In this document: positions 445 through 18,230 of the stretch, in pieces | Position numbering within the stretch: the stretch's first letter is position 1 | Layout of the letters: every line of letters starts with the position of its first letter | Origin: Scytonema sp. RU_4_4 | GTDB lineage: Bacteria; Cyanobacteriota; Cyanobacteriia; Cyanobacteriales; Nostocaceae | Length of the DNA stretch: 24,000 bases | Assembly (NCBI GenBank): GCA_012031965.1 | Contig: JAAUSC010000024.1 | Location: forward strand, 1,532 to 25,531 | Reading direction: 5' to 3' | Made by a program: the position numbers and the translations under genes | The notes under the pieces: generated by a model | Databases searched by the model: none | Seen by the model: the letters and a program-made list of their open reading frames with translations, nothing else | What the model was told of the DNA's origin: nothing

Positions 445-736
445 GTAGGGTGGGCAATGCTCACCAAAACCCAGATATAACCTAAATTATAGTAGGCATT
501 GCCCAACGCCCTATGGCTGACGCCACGCCTTACGGCTATCGGGGAAGACCTCCGGTCTCGCTGCGAAGGGAGCCAGTCGCCTACGGAGGGAGACCCTCCT
601 GCAGCGCTGGTCTCACCAGATGCTGCCCTTACGGGAAGCCGCTACGCGTCTACAAGCCGGGAAACCCGGACGCCAGATACCTACGGAGGGATACCCTCCT
701 GCAGTACTGGCTCTCCAACGCACTGGCTCCCTTACG
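445..736. repeat. Cluster of Nostoc-type short dispersed GC-rich hairpin repeats (MITE-like)
   Basis: Contains GTAGGGTGGGCAATGCTCACC, GGAGGGAGACCCTCC, GGAGGGATACCCTCC, CAAGCCGGGAAACCCGG and CAACGCACTGGCTCCCTTACG. The last two motifs recur almost verbatim at 18089-18126. Track ORFs 499-777 and 513-854 are low-complexity read-through of these repeats. Confidence 0.7.
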
Positions 737-8718: not shown

Positions 8719-8960
8719 TCCCATACATACAGAAAAGAGTGAATAAGCTATTCATTAATAATTAACTAATACAAAAGAGTAAATAATTTATGATATAATG
8801 TACGATCTGGAAGGTAATGTGTTCAGATCCTCTTTTCTGCGCTAGTATGAAAAAGCTAGTATGAAAAAGGATGTAGGTGTGGAATGCCTATTTGGCTCTT
8901 GCATATACATCGCTAGGAGGCAAAACCTTTACGGAGAATAATCACCAGGAAACAATCAGC

Positions 8961-10181
8961 ATGGTCAATCAGAAATTAACCGCTCCTGAAATTGGATTTA
9001 CTCACGACGATTTCGCTGCTCTGCTAGACAAGTACGATTATCATTTTAGCCCAGGCGATATAGTACCAGGTACAGTATTCAGCATAGAGCCACGCGGCGC
9101 TCTGATTGACATAGGTGCTAAAACAGCAGCATATATACCTATACAAGAAATGTCTATCAACCGGGTAGATAGCCCGGAAGAAGTCTTACAATCCAACGAA
9201 ACACGGGAATTTTTCATCCTTACTGATGAAAACGAAGATGGTCAACTGACGCTATCCATTCGCCGTATTGAATACATGCGGGCTTGGGAACGTGTACGAC
9301 AGTTGCAGGCAGAAGATGCAACTGTCCGTTCTGGCGTTTTTGCTACCAATCGTGGTGGAGCTTTGGTGCGGATAGAAGGCTTACGTGGATTTATTCCTGG
9401 TTCTCATATTAGCACCCGCAAACCAAAAGAAGAGTTGGTTGGCGAAGAACTGCCATTAAAATTCCTAGAGGTAGACGAAGAACGTAACCGCCTTGTTTTA
9501 TCTCATCGTCGTGCGCTGGTTGAGCGCAAGATGAACCGCTTAGAAGTTGGAGAAGTCGTGATTGGTACTGTACGCGGTATTAAGCCCTACGGTGCCTTTA
9601 TTGATATTGGCGGCGTGAGTGGTCTACTTCACATCTCCGAAATTTCCCACGAGCATATAGATACACCTCATAGTGTCTTTAATGTCAATGATGAAGTTAA
9701 AGTCATGATCATTGACTTAGATGCAGAACGTGGTCGTATTTCCTTGTCTACCAAACAACTGGAACCTGAACCAGGCGATATGATTAAGAATCGCGATTTG
9801 GTGTATGACAAGGCAGAGGAAATGGCTGCGAAGTATCGGGAACAACTGCTAGCCAAACAGCAAGGTGCTCCTGCGGCTCCTGCTGCATCAGCTGAAGCCG
9901 CAGAAATTGTGGGTGAAGAAATACCTGCAGAAATTGTGGGTGAAGAAATACCTGCAGAAATTGTGGGTGAAGAAATACCTGCAGAAATTGTGGGTGAAGA
10001 AATACCCGCAGCAGTAGCAGTTGAAGAAGAAATACCCGCAGCAGTAGCAGTTGAAGAAGAAATACCCTCAGCAGTTGAAGAAGAAATACCCGCAGCAGTT
10101 GAAGAAGAAATACCCGTAGCAGTTGAAGAAGAAATACCCGTAGCAGTTGAAGAAGAAATACCCGCAGCAGTTGAAGAGTAA
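8961..10181 (+). CDS. rpsA: 30S ribosomal protein S1 with a C-terminal acidic tandem-repeat extension
   Basis: MVNQKLTAPEIGFTHDDFAALLDKYDYHF is the typical cyanobacterial S1 N-terminus (ATG 8961; the track starts earlier at GTG 8877). Three S1 domains are followed by a 93-aa repeat tail. Confidence 0.93.
   Translation: MVNQKLTAPEIGFTHDDFAALLDKYDYHFSPGDIVPGTVFSIEPRGALIDIGAKTAAYIPIQEMSINRVDSPEEVLQSNETREFFILTDENEDGQLTLSIRRIEYMRAWERVRQLQAEDATVRSGVFATNRGGALVRIEGLRGFIPGSHISTRKPKEELVGEELPLKFLEVDEERNRLVLSHRRALVERKMNRLEVGEVVIGTVRGIKPYGAFIDIGGVSGLLHISEISHEHIDTPHSVFNVNDEVKVMIIDLDAERGRISLSTKQLEPEPGDMIKNRDLVYDKAEEMAAKYREQLLAKQQGAPAAPAASAEAAEIVGEEIPAEIVGEEIPAEIVGEEIPAEIVGEEIPAAVAVEEEIPAAVAVEEEIPSAVEEEIPAAVEEEIPVAVEEEIPVAVEEEIPAAVEE
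9900..10178 (+). repeat. In-frame tandem repeats inside rpsA: 27 bp x4 (AEIVGEEIP), 30 bp x2 (AAVAVEEEIP), 24 bp x4 plus a partial copy (xAVEEEIP)
   Basis: Directly visible, nearly perfect tandem copies. Track ORF 9668-10186 on the minus strand is an antisense artefact of these repeats. Confidence 0.95.
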
Positions 10182-10894: not shown

Positions 10895-11007
10895 AACAGT
10901 GCCTAGTATTGCGTTTTCTGAGGACACAAGCCGCTAAATCTCAGTGAAAATTTTTACCTGAAGCGTTAAATTCTAGAACAGATTTCATCTAAACCTCCAG
11001 GAGACCC

Positions 11008-11034
11008 CCACCAAAACTGTACTCAGTTTGGTGG
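11008..11034 (-). repeat. Right-end subterminal imperfect hairpin of the IscB element
   Basis: CCACCAAAACTG-TACT-CAGTTTGGTGG: an 11-bp stem with one bulged A and a 4-nt TACT loop. Same design as the hairpin at 12703-12731. Confidence 0.55.
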
Positions 11035-11130
11035 CGGGAGGATGTCCGGGTTAATTGTGAAACGTCCCTTAAATGATTTTGTGCGTTAGCACAAACAATG
11101 AGAGGGACAGTTGAGCAATTAACAAATCTT

Positions 11131-12414
11131 CTATTGTGCATACGAGTAACCATCTTTTGCGTGAATGCGTTTACAAAACTTGTGCGATATTCCTTGAACT
11201 AATCCGTTTTTAGCAGAAATATTGAAACTACCTGACGAACGGATAGCCACTTTCCCAATATAATTACCAACCTTTTTACCAGTGGTGACGACTGCTTTTA
11301 CGATGTCACCAGTTTGAAAATTAAAGTGTATTTTTTCTCTTGGTACGTGTCGATGTGGGAAACCGAATTTATCTGTGCGACATGATTGCCTAGCTCCGTG
11401 TCCGTTAGCTGTAATTAACAATGGTTTGGCTCCTTTAATAATCAGTTTGGGTGTTGATTTCCCAACACAAGCCGCATCTAACCAGTGAGTCTTTTCTAAT
11501 TTTTGTTGACTTCTGTTGAACTTTGTTAGACCTCCTGAACCCGTTTCTACAGGCAATCCTGTCTCTTTTAAAATTCTAAATAACGCCCACCGAGTTGTGT
11601 TCACAGCGGCTGCATCAGCTAATGGTCTTTTAGCTTGTGCCAAAATTTTTGATAATTTAGCTGGGTCTTTTTTGAGAAACTCTTTGATATCTTTTGTCCC
11701 TTTTTTGGTGTTACATTTATCGCAACTTAAGGTGAGATTTGTAATAGAATTACTACCTCCCTTCGCTCGCGGGTGAATGTGTTCTACCTGAAAAGGAACG
11801 TCTTTAACGCCACAATAAGCACATTGCCTACCCCACTTTTCAAGTAAATATTCCCGCGTTTCGTAACCTGCTAAAGTACCTTGCTGATATTCCTCCCCTT
11901 TGATATCTGGATTACGCATTAACTGCATATCAAAACGGACTAATTCCTGACTAATAGCCTTAATTGGTGCAAATCGGCATAACTTATTAACCCAGGTTTC
12001 AATATTCTCGACACGGCTTTGTAAGCTCGGTGCTAACCATCCTTTTGGACGTGTTCTGTTTAAAAATCTTGGCGCTCTATAACGAGTTTTTCTAGCGCGT
12101 CTACCACGTCTTAATTGTCGTCTAGATGTTAAAGCTTCTCTAATAGCAAAGCCGCGATGTTTTAATTCTGCTGCAAATACGACTTCGCCAGTAGTCTCGT
12201 TGATTAATGCAATTCCTGTGAATTTTGCGCCTGGGTCTATTTTTAATCGCAGTGATGACACTGGTGAATCTGGTCTTGATTCTTTCAAAATAATTGTGAA
12301 CGGGAAGCGGCGATAAACTGCTGCTTTTTTGTTCCTTAATAACTGTCTAGCTTGTGCTGAATGAATTGGTAAGAGTGGTATGAAGTCTGTATCTAAAACG
12401 AATACTTTGCACAT
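11131..12414 (-). CDS. iscB: IscB-type RNA-guided nuclease (Cas9 ancestor family): PLMP-like N-terminus, split RuvC, bridge helix, HNH
   Basis: FIPLLPIH is PLMP-like. RuvC-I is LKIDPGAKFTGIAL (D60). The Arg-rich helix is RRQLRRGRRARKTRYRAPRF. RuvC-II is ISQELVRFD (E157). HNH is CAYCG...VEHIHPRAKGGSNSITNLTLSCDKCN (C198/C201/C231/C234, H212, N226/N235). RuvC-III is HWLDAACVG (H310/D313). 427 aa. A strong AAGGAGG Shine-Dalgarno sequence lies 6 nt before the ATG. Confidence 0.9.
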   Translation of the reverse strand: MCKVFVLDTDFIPLLPIHSAQARQLLRNKKAAVYRRFPFTIILKESRPDSPVSSLRLKIDPGAKFTGIALINETTGEVVFAAELKHRGFAIREALTSRRQLRRGRRARKTRYRAPRFLNRTRPKGWLAPSLQSRVENIETWVNKLCRFAPIKAISQELVRFDMQLMRNPDIKGEEYQQGTLAGYETREYLLEKWGRQCAYCGVKDVPFQVEHIHPRAKGGSNSITNLTLSCDKCNTKKGTKDIKEFLKKDPAKLSKILAQAKRPLADAAAVNTTRWALFRILKETGLPVETGSGGLTKFNRSQQKLEKTHWLDAACVGKSTPKLIIKGAKPLLITANGHGARQSCRTDKFGFPHRHVPREKIHFNFQTGDIVKAVVTTGKKVGNYIGKVAIRSSGSFNISAKNGLVQGISHKFCKRIHAKDGYSYAQ

Positions 12415-12745
12415 AAGTGCCTCCTTTCGGGTAATGTTAGCCTGGACAATGATTTAAAGGCTTTTTACGCTAACAACACTGACTCAAACCCAATGATTCT
12501 GTTTAATTGTTAACCTCAGGAGCCACTGCGTTGCCGGAGAGAAGTGCCTTGCGCGGGTTAAGCGCGTTGTGGCAACTTCGGAGGTTCCCCCGGTTGTAGC
12601 AAGTGGCGTAGCTACAAACTGGCTGCGTATTTGTAGGTGAGATGACCTAAAAATCGTAGTGAATTAACACTTAGTCGGGTAAACTCTAGGCTTTAAAAGC
12701 CCCCACTGTATTAGGTACTCCTAATCAGTGGTGGGTAGTTTACTA
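12415..12745 (-). ncRNA. Candidate omega RNA (HEARO-type guide RNA scaffold) of IscB; 5' end approximate
   Basis: About 330 nt upstream of iscB with no ORF. It is locally G+C-rich and densely self-complementary. Hairpins: 12703-12731, then TTGTAGC (12594-12600) / GCTACAA (12611-12617), then GAAGTGCC (12541-12548) / GGCAACTTC (12571-12579) enclosing GCGC-N7-GCGC. The position matches the known IscB locus layout. Confidence 0.6.
12703..12731 (-). repeat. Left-end subterminal imperfect hairpin of the IscB element
   Basis: CCACTGTATTAGG-TACT-CCTAATCAGTGG: a 12-bp stem with one bulged T and a TACT loop. Confidence 0.55.
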
Positions 12746-13013
12746 TTTTACACATTGACATATTCAAAGATTTTGACATATTGTTAACAAGTTCGCGTTA
12801 ATGAGATAACCTTAACAAAAGTTTGAGTAACCCTAACTTGCGTAAGCAAGCTCAACTTCACTCTGGTTTCAGACAAGCTCAAATCCGATCAGGGCATGAA
12901 AGCCCCTTCAACTAAACTTCAATAATGTTTCAGGGTTTTGCCTCTACCAATTTGGAGTACGAAGGCTCACCATTGTGAGATTCAACCAATATTGAACAGG
13001 AGAGAAGAGGCAA

Positions 13014-14243
13014 ATGATCATTTTCGACCCTATAACCTTGAGTGCTATTAGCCATACTCTCAATGCTGCTTCTGTCATCAGTGTTAGCATTCAAAATCAA
13101 TCGAACTTGAGTCTGAGTCAAGCAACAAAATCGAAGTTAGCAAAGAACCCAACAAAGCTTTCACACCTGACAAGAACGACGACTCCTACTCTCGTAGCCC
13201 AAGCCACCACTTCAACACCGAACTCAGATACGAGCAAATGCGGTTCTGGTCAATCACGCGATAAGTACACACAACCATTTGCCTGCGACAGCATTTGGAA
13301 TATGCCAATTGGAGCGAACGCGAAATACGTTGATGCTTATATCGGCTCAACGGGCGTTGGAGTTGACACAGACTGGTTCATCATAACCCAGGAAAGCGAC
13401 CGGGCTGTGTCAACTTATATGCCTGGTTCGTGGGGTCCAGGTCGCTGCACTGGCACTCAGGTGCAGCAGCAAGCGCAATGGCATCCCGAAGCGGGTGAGC
13501 TGTTGAAAGTTCCTGAGAGTCTCATCATTGAGGATGCAAGTGGAAACTTTACTCCAAACGGCTCCTCAGCCTTCCTGAAGCCGGATGGCAGAACACTAGT
13601 GTCTTTTAACGTGACCACCCGTTGTCAACAGGGTGCCCCGCTTTACGGCGTTTGGTTTGGACAGCAAGACATTTACGGCGATGGCATTGATGGTGGGCAT
13701 GGCGGCTCAGGAATGTCGAGCATTGGCGGTAGCATTCGCAAAGGTGAGTTGTTGAACGACGAGCCTATCCGTCACGCACTCAAGATTGATATCTGGGGCA
13801 AGTGGCTGCATTACAATGCTTCATCGTCAACCCCTGGTCACCGCTGGCCAGCCCGTCTGGCTGATTCTAATGCATCATCCCAATACCAGGGGTCCAATCC
13901 AGCACTGGTCATGGGTTCCTTACTAGCAATTCCACCTAATGTCACAGCCGAGAGCCTAGGACTGACCAGCAAAGCAGGTAAGAAAATCTTCCAAGCTATG
14001 CAAGACTACGGTGCTTACGTCGTTGACAATTCAGGCTGGGACTACAATTACCTCTGCGTTGAACAGAGCGCCGAGCAAGAGTATGAGACAGTTACCGGAC
14101 ATGAGATTCATGGAGATGCAGCGCTCCAAGCGGACTTCGCCAAAATTATTGCTGCTGTGAAGGTTGTGGACAACAACAAATCGAACAGTATTGGTGGAGG
14201 TGGTACACCACGCCAACCTTTGGCACCACCACTTGGAAATTAA
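13014..14243 (+). CDS. Hypothetical protein (409 aa) with an S/T-rich linker; compositionally atypical
   Basis: Long ORF with GGAGA upstream of the ATG. Hand counts of several 60-nt lines give roughly 45-65% G+C, against about 38-47% in neighbouring genes. Many G/C-ending codons. No family recognised (motifs GHGGSGMSSIGGSIRKGEL and HALKIDIWGKW). Confidence 0.7.
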   Translation: MIIFDPITLSAISHTLNAASVISVSIQNQSNLSLSQATKSKLAKNPTKLSHLTRTTTPTLVAQATTSTPNSDTSKCGSGQSRDKYTQPFACDSIWNMPIGANAKYVDAYIGSTGVGVDTDWFIITQESDRAVSTYMPGSWGPGRCTGTQVQQQAQWHPEAGELLKVPESLIIEDASGNFTPNGSSAFLKPDGRTLVSFNVTTRCQQGAPLYGVWFGQQDIYGDGIDGGHGGSGMSSIGGSIRKGELLNDEPIRHALKIDIWGKWLHYNASSSTPGHRWPARLADSNASSQYQGSNPALVMGSLLAIPPNVTAESLGLTSKAGKKIFQAMQDYGAYVVDNSGWDYNYLCVEQSAEQEYETVTGHEIHGDAALQADFAKIIAAVKVVDNNKSNSIGGGGTPRQPLAPPLGN

Positions 14244-17592: not shown

Positions 17593-17946
17593 TCAAATAT
17601 TTTGCTTTTTATTATTGATTTCAGATAAATGCTTGACACCCCACTCATGCATTGCATAAAGAATTGGTTGAAGACTTTCTCCTAAAGGTGTTAATGAATA
17701 CTCTACTTTAGGAGGAATTTGTGGGTAAACTTTGCGATGAATAATCCCATCTTCTTCCATCTCCCTGAGTTGTTGAGTCAGCATTTTTTGAGTAATTCCA
17801 TCTAAAGCTCGCTGTAATTCACCAAAGCGTTTCATACCATCCATTAATTCTCTAATAATCAAAACTTTCCAGCGTCCACCAATGACTTTTAGCGTGGTTT
17901 CTACCTCACAAGTTAACCTGGTGTGGTTTTGCGCTTCAGCTTTCAT
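17593..17946 (-). CDS. HxlR-family winged-helix transcriptional regulator
   Basis: LKVIGGRWKVLIIRELMDGMKRFGELQRAL...ITQKMLTQQLREMEEDGIIHRKVYPQIPPKVEYSLTPLG is a typical HxlR signature. Confidence 0.9.
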   Translation of the reverse strand: MKAEAQNHTRLTCEVETTLKVIGGRWKVLIIRELMDGMKRFGELQRALDGITQKMLTQQLREMEEDGIIHRKVYPQIPPKVEYSLTPLGESLQPILYAMHEWGVKHLSEINNKKQNI

Positions 17947-18010: not shown

Positions 18011-18230
18011 TAGGTGGGCATTGCTCACCAATATCTCAAATCTCTATCACATAGGCTTTTGGTCGCAATGTCCAACGCCAGATGCTTCAAGCCGGGAAAC
18101 CCGTCCAACGCACTGGCTCCCCTACGATTTGTAGTCTATTCATATGAAAACCGCTGTTACTTTAGCAGTTTGCATTTGGGTGCAATACACCCTCGAATTA
18201 AGTAGGGTGGGCATTACAATCCCACCCTAC
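18011..18230. repeat. Second cluster of the dispersed GC-rich repeats, including the perfect hairpin GTAGGGTGGG-N8-CCCACCCTAC (18203-18230)
   Basis: Shares TAGGTGGGCATTGCTCACC, CAAGCCGGGAAACCCG and CAACGCACTGGCTCCCCTACG with 445-736. Track ORF 18014-18205 is an artefact. Confidence 0.7.

Follow-up and report, generated by a model that had tools for sequence, protein, structure and literature searches.

A cyanobacterial IscB transposon whose omega RNA is interrupted by nested copies of a dispersed hairpin repeat

The window analysed here, a stretch of 24,000 nucleotides (nt) from Scytonema sp. RU_4_4, carries an iscB gene preceded by a non-coding interval (12415-12745) that is unusually rich in G+C and in hairpins. 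This raises two questions: does the interval encode the guide RNA of the IscB nuclease (omega RNA), as an earlier note made from the sequence alone had proposed, and, if so, which of its conspicuous stems belong to the RNA scaffold? The answer that we favour, with a probability of about 0.9, is that positions ~10985 to 12743 are a 1.76-kb non-autonomous transposon of the IS200/IS605 family (ISC), lying on the minus strand and consisting of a hairpin-bearing far end, an intact iscB and an omega RNA, whose 90-nt core (12520-12609) is a secondary insertion of two nested dispersed repeats of ~45 nt each.

A scan of the whole window against Rfam at gathering thresholds returned a single match, to HEARO (RF02033), running from 12743 to 12431 on the minus strand. 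The earlier note had named this covariance model as a way to check its proposal, and the match spans positions 1-211 of the 211 in the model, scoring 102.9 bits (E = 1.7e-20; gathering score 83). The name now in use for HEARO is IscB omega RNA, and the family has been shown experimentally to provide the guide RNA of IscB (Meers et al.; Kannan et al.). The omega RNA has been described as a conserved region upstream of iscB that is bounded by the transposon end and has a mean length of 242 nt (Meers et al.). In the window, as seen from the RF02033 match, the homologues and the covariation described below, the scaffold (12415-12743, minus strand) occupies the entire interval from the iscB start codon to the transposon end, directly upstream of the gene and on the same strand. 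The interval is non-coding as had been claimed, since no open reading frame (ORF) of at least 40 amino acids (aa) overlaps 12415-12929. A literature search for HEARO in Nostoc or Anabaena gave nothing relevant.

The iscB gene itself (11131-12414, minus strand) is intact and codes for a protein of 427 aa with Pfam matches to RRXRR (PF14239, 239.5 bits, residues 4-179) and HNH (PF01844, 47.5 bits, residues 198-240). Its N-terminus is PLMP-like (PLLP), and it retains the RuvC motifs IDPG (59), SQELVRFD (155) and THWLDAA (309), the arginine-rich (bridge) helix RRGRRAR, and an HNH insert of the form CAYCG...VEHIHPR (210)...NLTLSCDKCN. Relatives of solved structure in the PDB are TbaIscB (E = 2.1e-39), the IscB of entry 11hr (2.4e-26) and OgeuIscB (6.9e-24). 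By analogy with characterised IscB systems, the protein may act as a nuclease that makes use of a transposon-adjacent motif (TAM). The exact same protein is also found in assembly GCA_012035165.1 (contig JAAUOR010000283.1), where the locus is the same, 99.9% identical and with the insert in place. The surroundings are those of an ordinary cyanobacterial chromosome, with recR, an oligopeptide ABC transporter, psbB, an S1-domain protein, a nitroreductase, an M50 peptidase and vWA proteins. Taken by itself, this IscB/omega-RNA transposon is ordinary and automatically recognisable, one more cyanobacterial member of a well-studied family.

Related loci were gathered by scanning one genome per species, which gave 80 loci, almost all from Nostocales, with IscB identities of 66-89%. 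An nhmmer model built from 30 of their upstream regions detected the RNA, in a position immediately preceding iscB, in essentially all of the 80 loci, and gave a single match in the window. We then aligned 75 distinct copies with MAFFT (the window plus 74 related loci; alignment A1) and projected onto them the HEARO consensus structure, with one correction and an extension of the first hairpin, for a total of 72 pairs in 13 helices. Standard pairs fill 82.5% of the 4736 cells of this fold, versus 35-46% when the partners are slid by 1-3 columns, and compensatory substitutions on both sides are seen in 48 of the 72 pairs. For covariation, the score reaches 0.382, versus 0.06-0.09 for the slid structures, and none of 500 shuffles did as well. 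Because pairing and covariation exceed both the slid and the shuffled controls, the omega-RNA scaffold is real and conserved. The claim of an omega-RNA scaffold with a flank-derived 5' guide is therefore borne out by a HEARO match directly upstream of an RRXRR and HNH ORF and by homologues that conserve and covary.

Concerning individual helices, the figures are approximate, A1 being a sequence-based alignment that is imperfect in indel-rich subfamilies. The first hairpin of the omega RNA (12700-12735, minus strand) folds at -20.7 kcal/mol (z = -4.66), and none of 200 shuffles folds as well. In helix 2, 12 of the 14 pairs have changed on both sides. The native central hairpin, CUACAAA/UUUGUAG (12611-12637, minus strand), corresponds to helix 11, in which 12611-12617 meets its conserved partner 12631-12637; it is 97% paired and five of its seven pairs covary. 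Two pairs that span the insertion discussed below, U12640-A12516 and C12639-G12517, close it; they form helix 10, in which pairing is 100% and both pairs covary. Taken whole, the minus-strand RNA of 346 nt has a folding energy of -101.4 kcal/mol (z = -2.87), a value equalled or bettered by one of 100 shuffles. At the other extremity, the 3' tail (12415-12431, minus strand), ACCC-GAAA-GGAGG, lies beyond the Rfam model, and relatives carry the variants CCCAGAAATGG and CCCAAGCAATTGG (A1 columns 826-890). From this variation one may suspect a small terminal hairpin, with a 3' strand that overlaps the Shine-Dalgarno sequence of iscB.

Among the loci, conservation starts exactly at GTAAACTACCC (12743), and the sequence upstream of this point is unrelated from one locus to the next. 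Since scaffold conservation begins at 12743, the guide would be the flanking DNA immediately 5' of it, 5'-GTCAATGTGTAAAATA-3' (12759 to 12744, minus strand), if its length is the 16 nt assumed from characterised IscB systems; the earlier placement at 12737-12760 has to be shifted accordingly to about 12744-12759. On the other side of iscB, conservation runs for 147 nt to ...GGAGGTTTAGATGA (window 10985), beyond which the 20 loci compared are unrelated. This non-coding far end (10990-11130, minus strand) contains a subterminal hairpin at 11005-11038 that shares with the hairpin at 12700-12735 the design CC.CCAC...GAGTAC...GTGGGGG, including the GAGTAC loop, which identifies the two as the subterminal hairpins of an IS200/IS605-type element. 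The first hairpin of the omega RNA therefore doubles, in the DNA, as the subterminal hairpin on this side of the transposon. The ends are asymmetric, with neither terminal inverted repeats nor an evident target duplication, and the flanks (...cagatt and tatttt...) are not repeats. The hairpin is separated from the boundary by 8 nt at the RNA end and by 20 nt at the far end, and from these distances and the statement of Meers et al., who assign the omega-RNA side to the right end of the transposon, we take the omega-RNA side to be the right end, and not the left end from which the RNA had been said to run. Related genomes harbour multiple copies of such elements, for instance five in Anabaena azotica SJ-1.

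At the far end, conservation finishes with TCATC (plus strand, 10985-10989), which reads GATGA on the strand of iscB and is a candidate TAM or the final bases of the element. Its reading as a TAM follows the IS200/IS605 model of Meers et al., who also give a donor-joint model for IscB elements. After excision, TCATC would directly follow, on the 3' side, the sequence matching the guide on the non-target strand, as the donor-joint model expects.

The presence of mirrored hairpins at the two ends also bears on a different account of the whole region, in which it would be only a cis-acting 5' leader of iscB or a DNA-level transposon end made of hairpins bound by the transposase TnpA, devoid of any guide function in trans. 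Part of the covariation in the 12703-12731 stem may indeed reflect recognition of the DNA by the transposase, and part of the conservation may likewise be at the DNA level; moreover, the 3' tail overlaps the ribosome-binding site GGAGG of iscB. However, covariation extends over 13 helices and ~300 nt, well beyond the subterminal hairpin, and members of the HEARO family have been shown in experiments to guide IscB, so that we regard this account as very improbable indeed.

If the scaffold is conserved, what makes this copy so rich in G+C and in perfect stems? The omega RNA proposed here measures 329 nt from the scaffold start to the ATG, versus 233-247 nt in uninterrupted relatives. When the window element is compared with the related loci by blastn, the closest relatives join the segment matching 12746-12610 directly to that matching 12519 downward. 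Their junction reads ...UUUGUAGCU followed at once by CUGAGG..., and in the window 90 nt separate the same two sequences. This 90-nt insertion (12520-12609, minus strand) sits in the central hairpin, between CU and CU of its 3'-side internal loop, and is missing from all 74 aligned relatives except one (locus L008, where a related unit of 44 nt occupies that site), including the closest ones, with IscB identities of 83-89%. An alternative placement in the apical loop, suggested by the 106-nt local insertion of the Rfam alignment, was rejected, as the model had borrowed GUGGCU from the end of the insert while the homologous 3' strand, UUUGUAGCU, lies upstream. A metagenome search for the same chromosomal junction without the insert gave no match, and the only exact match of the IscB protein is the same locus with its insert.

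The insertion accounts for most of what had first drawn attention to the interval. G+C is raised as reported, with 150-nt windows at 0.49-0.51 (12450-12674) against 0.35-0.41 on both sides; it is 0.622 within 12520-12609, and the rest of the scaffold, at 0.406, lies at the background level (window mean 0.412), so that the insertion explains the entire excess. The stems listed in the earlier note are all readable in the sequence: GAAGTGCC (12541-12548) with GGCAACTTC (12571-12579), GCGC-N7-GCGC (12552-12566), GCCGG (12533-12537) with CCGGT (12590-12594), TTGTAGC (12594-12600) with GCTACAA (12611-12617), and the bulged 12-bp hairpin at 12703-12731. As elements of the scaffold they fared unequally. 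The insertion holds the GAAGTGCC/GGCAACTTC stem with its inner GCGC-N7-GCGC, the GCCGG/CCGGT helix, and the 12594-12600 arm of TTGTAGC/GCTACAA; because nearly all relatives lack it, these stems are not part of the conserved scaffold. Three of the four listed stems thus belong to the 90-nt repeat insertion, and the one at 12703-12731 is conserved.

The insert is composed of two nested units, an outer one (12580-12609 plus 12520-12535) and an inner one of 44 nt (12536-12579). Once the inner unit is removed, the outer unit (ACGCCACTTGCTACAACCGGGGGAACCTCC|GGCAACGCAGTGGCTCC) has intergenic matches in nine cyanobacterial plasmids at 79-94% identity, which cover 82-87% of a 55-nt query made of the unit and a few flanking bases. 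The inner unit (GAAGTTGCCACAACGCGCTTAACCCGCGCAAGGCACTTCTCTCC) matches other cyanobacterial plasmid copies at 83-91% identity. All copies have a common design, in which an 8-bp bulged outer stem leads to a conserved internal loop, UACAAC/CAAC, and then to a short G+C hairpin capped by a loop of GAA type. In an alignment of 18 copies (A2), the stems of the repeat are 87.3% paired, versus 32-51% when slid, and 8 of 14 pairs have changed on both sides. A strict 23-base pattern of the outer unit occurs in at least 120 metagenome contigs, in copies that are embedded in heptamer tandem repeats or in repeats of other kinds, or that nest within further copies of the unit. The idea that most copies of the repeat reside in omega RNAs was discarded, since none of the 120 metagenome copies listed does. 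Nesting is seen in the window insert, in loci L085, L090 and L030, and at window 600-730, and units occur in both orientations relative to the omega RNA.

Simple pattern searches mostly failed to recover the repeat, which made it necessary to build a covariance model of the unit (R1); likewise, a blastn-short search with the 90 nt, run on the window and the 80 loci, returned only the query itself, and a search of 12500-12630 against Rfam by E-value gave no family for the repeat. R1 recognises the inner unit at 12536-12582 (60.2 bits), and its best match (64 bits) lies elsewhere in the window, at 18075-18121 on the plus strand, a complete copy of ~47 nt (AACGCCAGATGCTTCAAGCCGGGAAACCCGTCCAACGCACTGGCTCCCC) in the intergenic space between ORFs ending at 17946 and 18368. 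The nested cluster at window 600-730 (plus strand) reads ...CCAGATGCTGCC...ACAAGCCGGGAAACCCGG...CCAACGCACTGGCTCCC and includes an inner match at 670-715 (23 bits); its arrangement resembles the one inside the omega RNA.

In size, structure and distribution these units recall the small dispersed repeats (SDRs) of cyanobacteria that Elhai and colleagues are said to have described from Nostoc in 2008. The resemblance extends to hairpin units of ~45 nt, compensatory changes, dispersal in Nostocales and relatives, self-nesting and association with heptamer tandem repeats, although the cores of SDRs are reportedly 21-27 nt long and the units found here about twice that; they may or may not belong to one of the named families SDR1-8. 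A literature search on SDR names returned only unrelated dehydrogenase papers.

Inserts of at least 15 nt are present in 20 of the 75 aligned omega RNAs (the window and 19 loci), amounting to ~24 inserts at ~10 sites. Nearly all of them fall in loops, junctions or single-stranded tails; the exception (L016) is a 145-nt insert within the 5' strand region of the long-range helix, which is a subfamily indel region in the alignment. Units related to the hairpin repeat are found at the same site in L008 and at other loop sites in L016, L024, L030, L031 and L065. In 498 kb of sampled loci, R1 has 16 matches with E<0.01, of which 12 lie in or beside the non-coding DNA of IscB elements versus 4 elsewhere, a count uncorrected for shared ancestry.

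These observations could suggest that the G+C-rich block is not a selfish repeat but a functional, lineage-specific arm of the omega RNA, serving host-factor binding, RNA stability or the regulation of iscB. A very stable independent fold, the recurrence of related units at the same site and at other loop sites, and the excess of R1 matches around IscB elements would all be in line with such a role. It is at odds, on the other hand, with the absence of the block from the closest relatives, with the scattering of units over unrelated contexts (heptamer repeats, other repeats, intergenic DNA, plasmids, and other parts of the window), with their lack from omega RNAs in the 120 metagenome copies listed, and with the occurrence of either orientation. 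We consider a functional arm quite improbable. A separate proposal is that the non-coding ends of IscB elements in Nostocales, and especially the loops and junctions of their omega RNAs, may attract insertions of small dispersed repeats or tolerate them unusually well; this is speculative and rather unlikely. What we see as mildly novel is that small dispersed repeats often lie between omega-RNA helices in this cyanobacterial IscB family.

Other features of these loci are worth recording. Further copies of the hairpin repeat occur in or near the far non-coding end of the element in L008 (3881-3926), L013 (3878-3923), L027 (3894-3940) and L002 (3981-4026), ~100-150 nt past the iscB stop (in L002, some 200 nt). 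Another kind of small repeat, GTTCGCG(C/A)AGCGTCTCCCCTTGGGAG, is present in nine loci from different genera (L020, L023, L041, L050, L060, L061, L066, L075 and L078; A1 columns 737-814) and is doubled in L060 and L061; its site corresponds to ~window 12445, just past the 3' strand of the long-range closing helix. In the two Scytonema loci with the largest omega-RNA insertions, L030 and L031, a CTG (at 2501) stands in place of the ATG or GTG start of iscB, in a frame that is otherwise intact (427 aa).

How would the 90-nt insert affect the RNA? Folded alone, 12520-12609 reaches -35.5 kcal/mol (z = -3.74, none of 200 shuffles as good), with its two ends paired. The native scaffold combined with the self-folded insert has a predicted energy of -82.0 kcal/mol, against -97.9 for the minimum free energy (MFE) structure of the full RNA, a gap of 15.9; without the insert, the corresponding values are -47.7 and -63.0, a gap of 15.3. 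Because the gap is the same with and without the insert and its ends pair with each other, the insert is predicted to act as an independent extra arm that does not move the native fold further out of reach. The scaffold helices, for their part, keep their sequences despite the insert.

Several points nevertheless weigh against a working IscB/omega-RNA transposon as we propose it. Pairing between the GCUACAA of the insert and the native hairpin's 3' strand would yield -7.2 kcal/mol, versus -5.7 for the native pairing, and the unconstrained MFE structure does adopt this alternative UUGUAGC/GCUACAA stem; because the competing pairing is the stronger and is the one used by the MFE, the interrupted RNA may misfold. 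A consensus scan of 12744-13100 gave no promoter-like site on the minus strand. Read-through from a co-oriented upstream gene is the usual arrangement, as deduced for many IscB elements (Meers et al.), and here the nearest upstream gene (13014-14243) is divergent, so that read-through transcription is unavailable. No match to a Y1 transposase (tnpA) was found among the window ORFs scanned, several ORFs of at least 130 aa having been left unscanned. Finally, TCATC is conserved in 21 of 21 aligned loci, and such conservation alone can neither separate a TAM from the end of the element nor fix the far-end boundary.

The first of these points are those on which an alternative fate of the locus would turn. 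In this scenario the insert, by the competing GCUACAA pairing and the disrupted loop, has inactivated the omega RNA, leaving a decaying or tolerated relic that HEARO still recognises but that no longer guides IscB. The drop of the HEARO score to 102.9 bits, versus 126-150 in uninterrupted relatives, goes in the same direction, although interrupted copies span a broad range: the window, L008 (95.8 bits) and L030 have 96-111 bits, whereas L024 (124.2) and L065 (136.6) are near or within the uninterrupted range. So do the preference of the MFE for the alternative stem over the covarying native one and the lack of a promoter-like site or co-oriented upstream gene. In OrufIscB, the guide-adaptor hairpin and the 3' end of the omega RNA tolerate large changes, but the nexus hairpin tolerates no truncation (Kannan et al.). 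Nevertheless, iscB is of full length and has all its catalytic motifs, and all 19 related loci with an insert also keep an intact iscB (426-450 aa), with the proviso that the locus search favours intact genes. Furthermore, the sequence of every scaffold helix is preserved, the insert lying between helices as nearly all of the ~24 inserts do, and its ends pair without widening the energy gap to the native fold. On these grounds we consider a dead copy less likely than not, and we retain an intact iscB with a conserved omega RNA that bears its insert as an extra arm.

Concerning transcription, the earlier note had pointed to a TAAAAT on the minus strand as a -10-like box. The motif exists (12750 to 12745) but does not qualify as the omega-RNA promoter: lying inside the proposed guide, it could not serve a guide-bearing RNA, and a start ~7 nt downstream would fall near 12738, giving a guide-less RNA that lacks the first scaffold bases. 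It also has no -35 hexamer 16-18 nt upstream, is in flanking DNA that is unconserved among copies, and is not accompanied by any promoter-like site listed by the minus-strand scan.

On the plus strand, a promoter-like site is found at 12755-12783, with TTGACA (12755-12760), a 16-nt spacer and TG-CATATT, directed towards the divergent ORF at 13014; a direct repeat, TTGACATATT, occurs at 12755-12764 and 12774-12783. Since the end of the transposon borders on the promoter-like site, the candidate guide overlaps the putative -35 box of the neighbour. The ORF itself (13014-14243, plus strand, 409 aa) has no Pfam match and a G+C of 0.49-0.59, above its surroundings. On the other side of the element, the S1-domain protein (ribosomal protein S1-like; 8877-10181, plus strand) has a long acidic C-terminal tandem repeat (EEIPAEIVG / EEEIPAAVAV...), which also yields a spurious antisense ORF of 172 aa.

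If this element functions as characterised IscB systems do, the RNA would be transcribed from the flank, with its first ~16 nt (12759 to 12744) serving as guide, and the scaffold of more than 313 nt would fold into the conserved multi-helix structure and bind IscB. The RuvC and HNH domains would then cut DNA complementary to the guide beside a TAM. As natural target one would expect the donor joint, in which the flank at 12744... is joined to ...TCATC after excision of the element by a TnpA supplied in trans, and cutting it would force the re-copying of the element by recombination. The 90-nt insert would not be part of this machinery, but a self-folded arm, predicted to have paired ends, attached to it.

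Inserts that lie between helices beside an intact iscB provide a cheap natural map of the sites where the omega RNA might accept additional sequence, which, provided that activity is confirmed, could interest those engaged in trimming IscB guide RNAs or adding to them. Should the interrupted RNAs be functional, the insertions would point to places on the IscB ribonucleoprotein that are exposed to solvent and open to engineering, and they might hint at a spread of the repeats via structured-RNA or single-stranded DNA hairpin intermediates. A caution applies to the reading of such loci: the conspicuous G+C and the dense perfect stems came here from a parasitic mini-repeat, while the conserved guide-RNA fold has a background composition.

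Compared with known systems, the RNA agrees with the HEARO/IscB omega RNA in its full-length match to the model, its position and strand relative to iscB, its covarying multi-helix fold, and a 5' edge that coincides with the transposon end, so that the guide comes from the flank. It differs by its length, 329 nt versus a mean of ~242 nt (Meers et al.), owing to the 90-nt insertion, and by its lower score. The protein shares with the IscB nucleases OgeuIscB (7xht/7utn), TbaIscB (9k30), OrufIscB and GstIscB the RRXRR/PLMP N-terminus, a RuvC domain split by HNH, and the arginine-rich helix. It is nonetheless distant from the solved IscBs (E of 1e-24 to 1e-39 over partial stretches) and, at 427 aa, shorter than OgeuIscB (~495 aa), and its host is a filamentous cyanobacterium. 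The element as a whole resembles the non-autonomous members of IS200/IS605 (ISC, Kapitonov 2016; ISGst, Meers 2023) by its subterminal hairpins at both ends, its lack of terminal inverted repeats, of an evident target duplication and of tnpA in cis, and its multiple copies in related genomes; here, the candidate TAM (TCATC) comes from conservation only. Finally, the arrangement parallels that of the TnpB omega RNA (also right-end element RNA, reRNA), in which the scaffold likewise overlaps the transposon end, the guide is taken from flanking DNA and the excision joint is targeted. In the TnpB system, however, the guide is at the 3' end of the RNA and the scaffold overlaps the 3' end of tnpB, and both the fold and the protein family are different.

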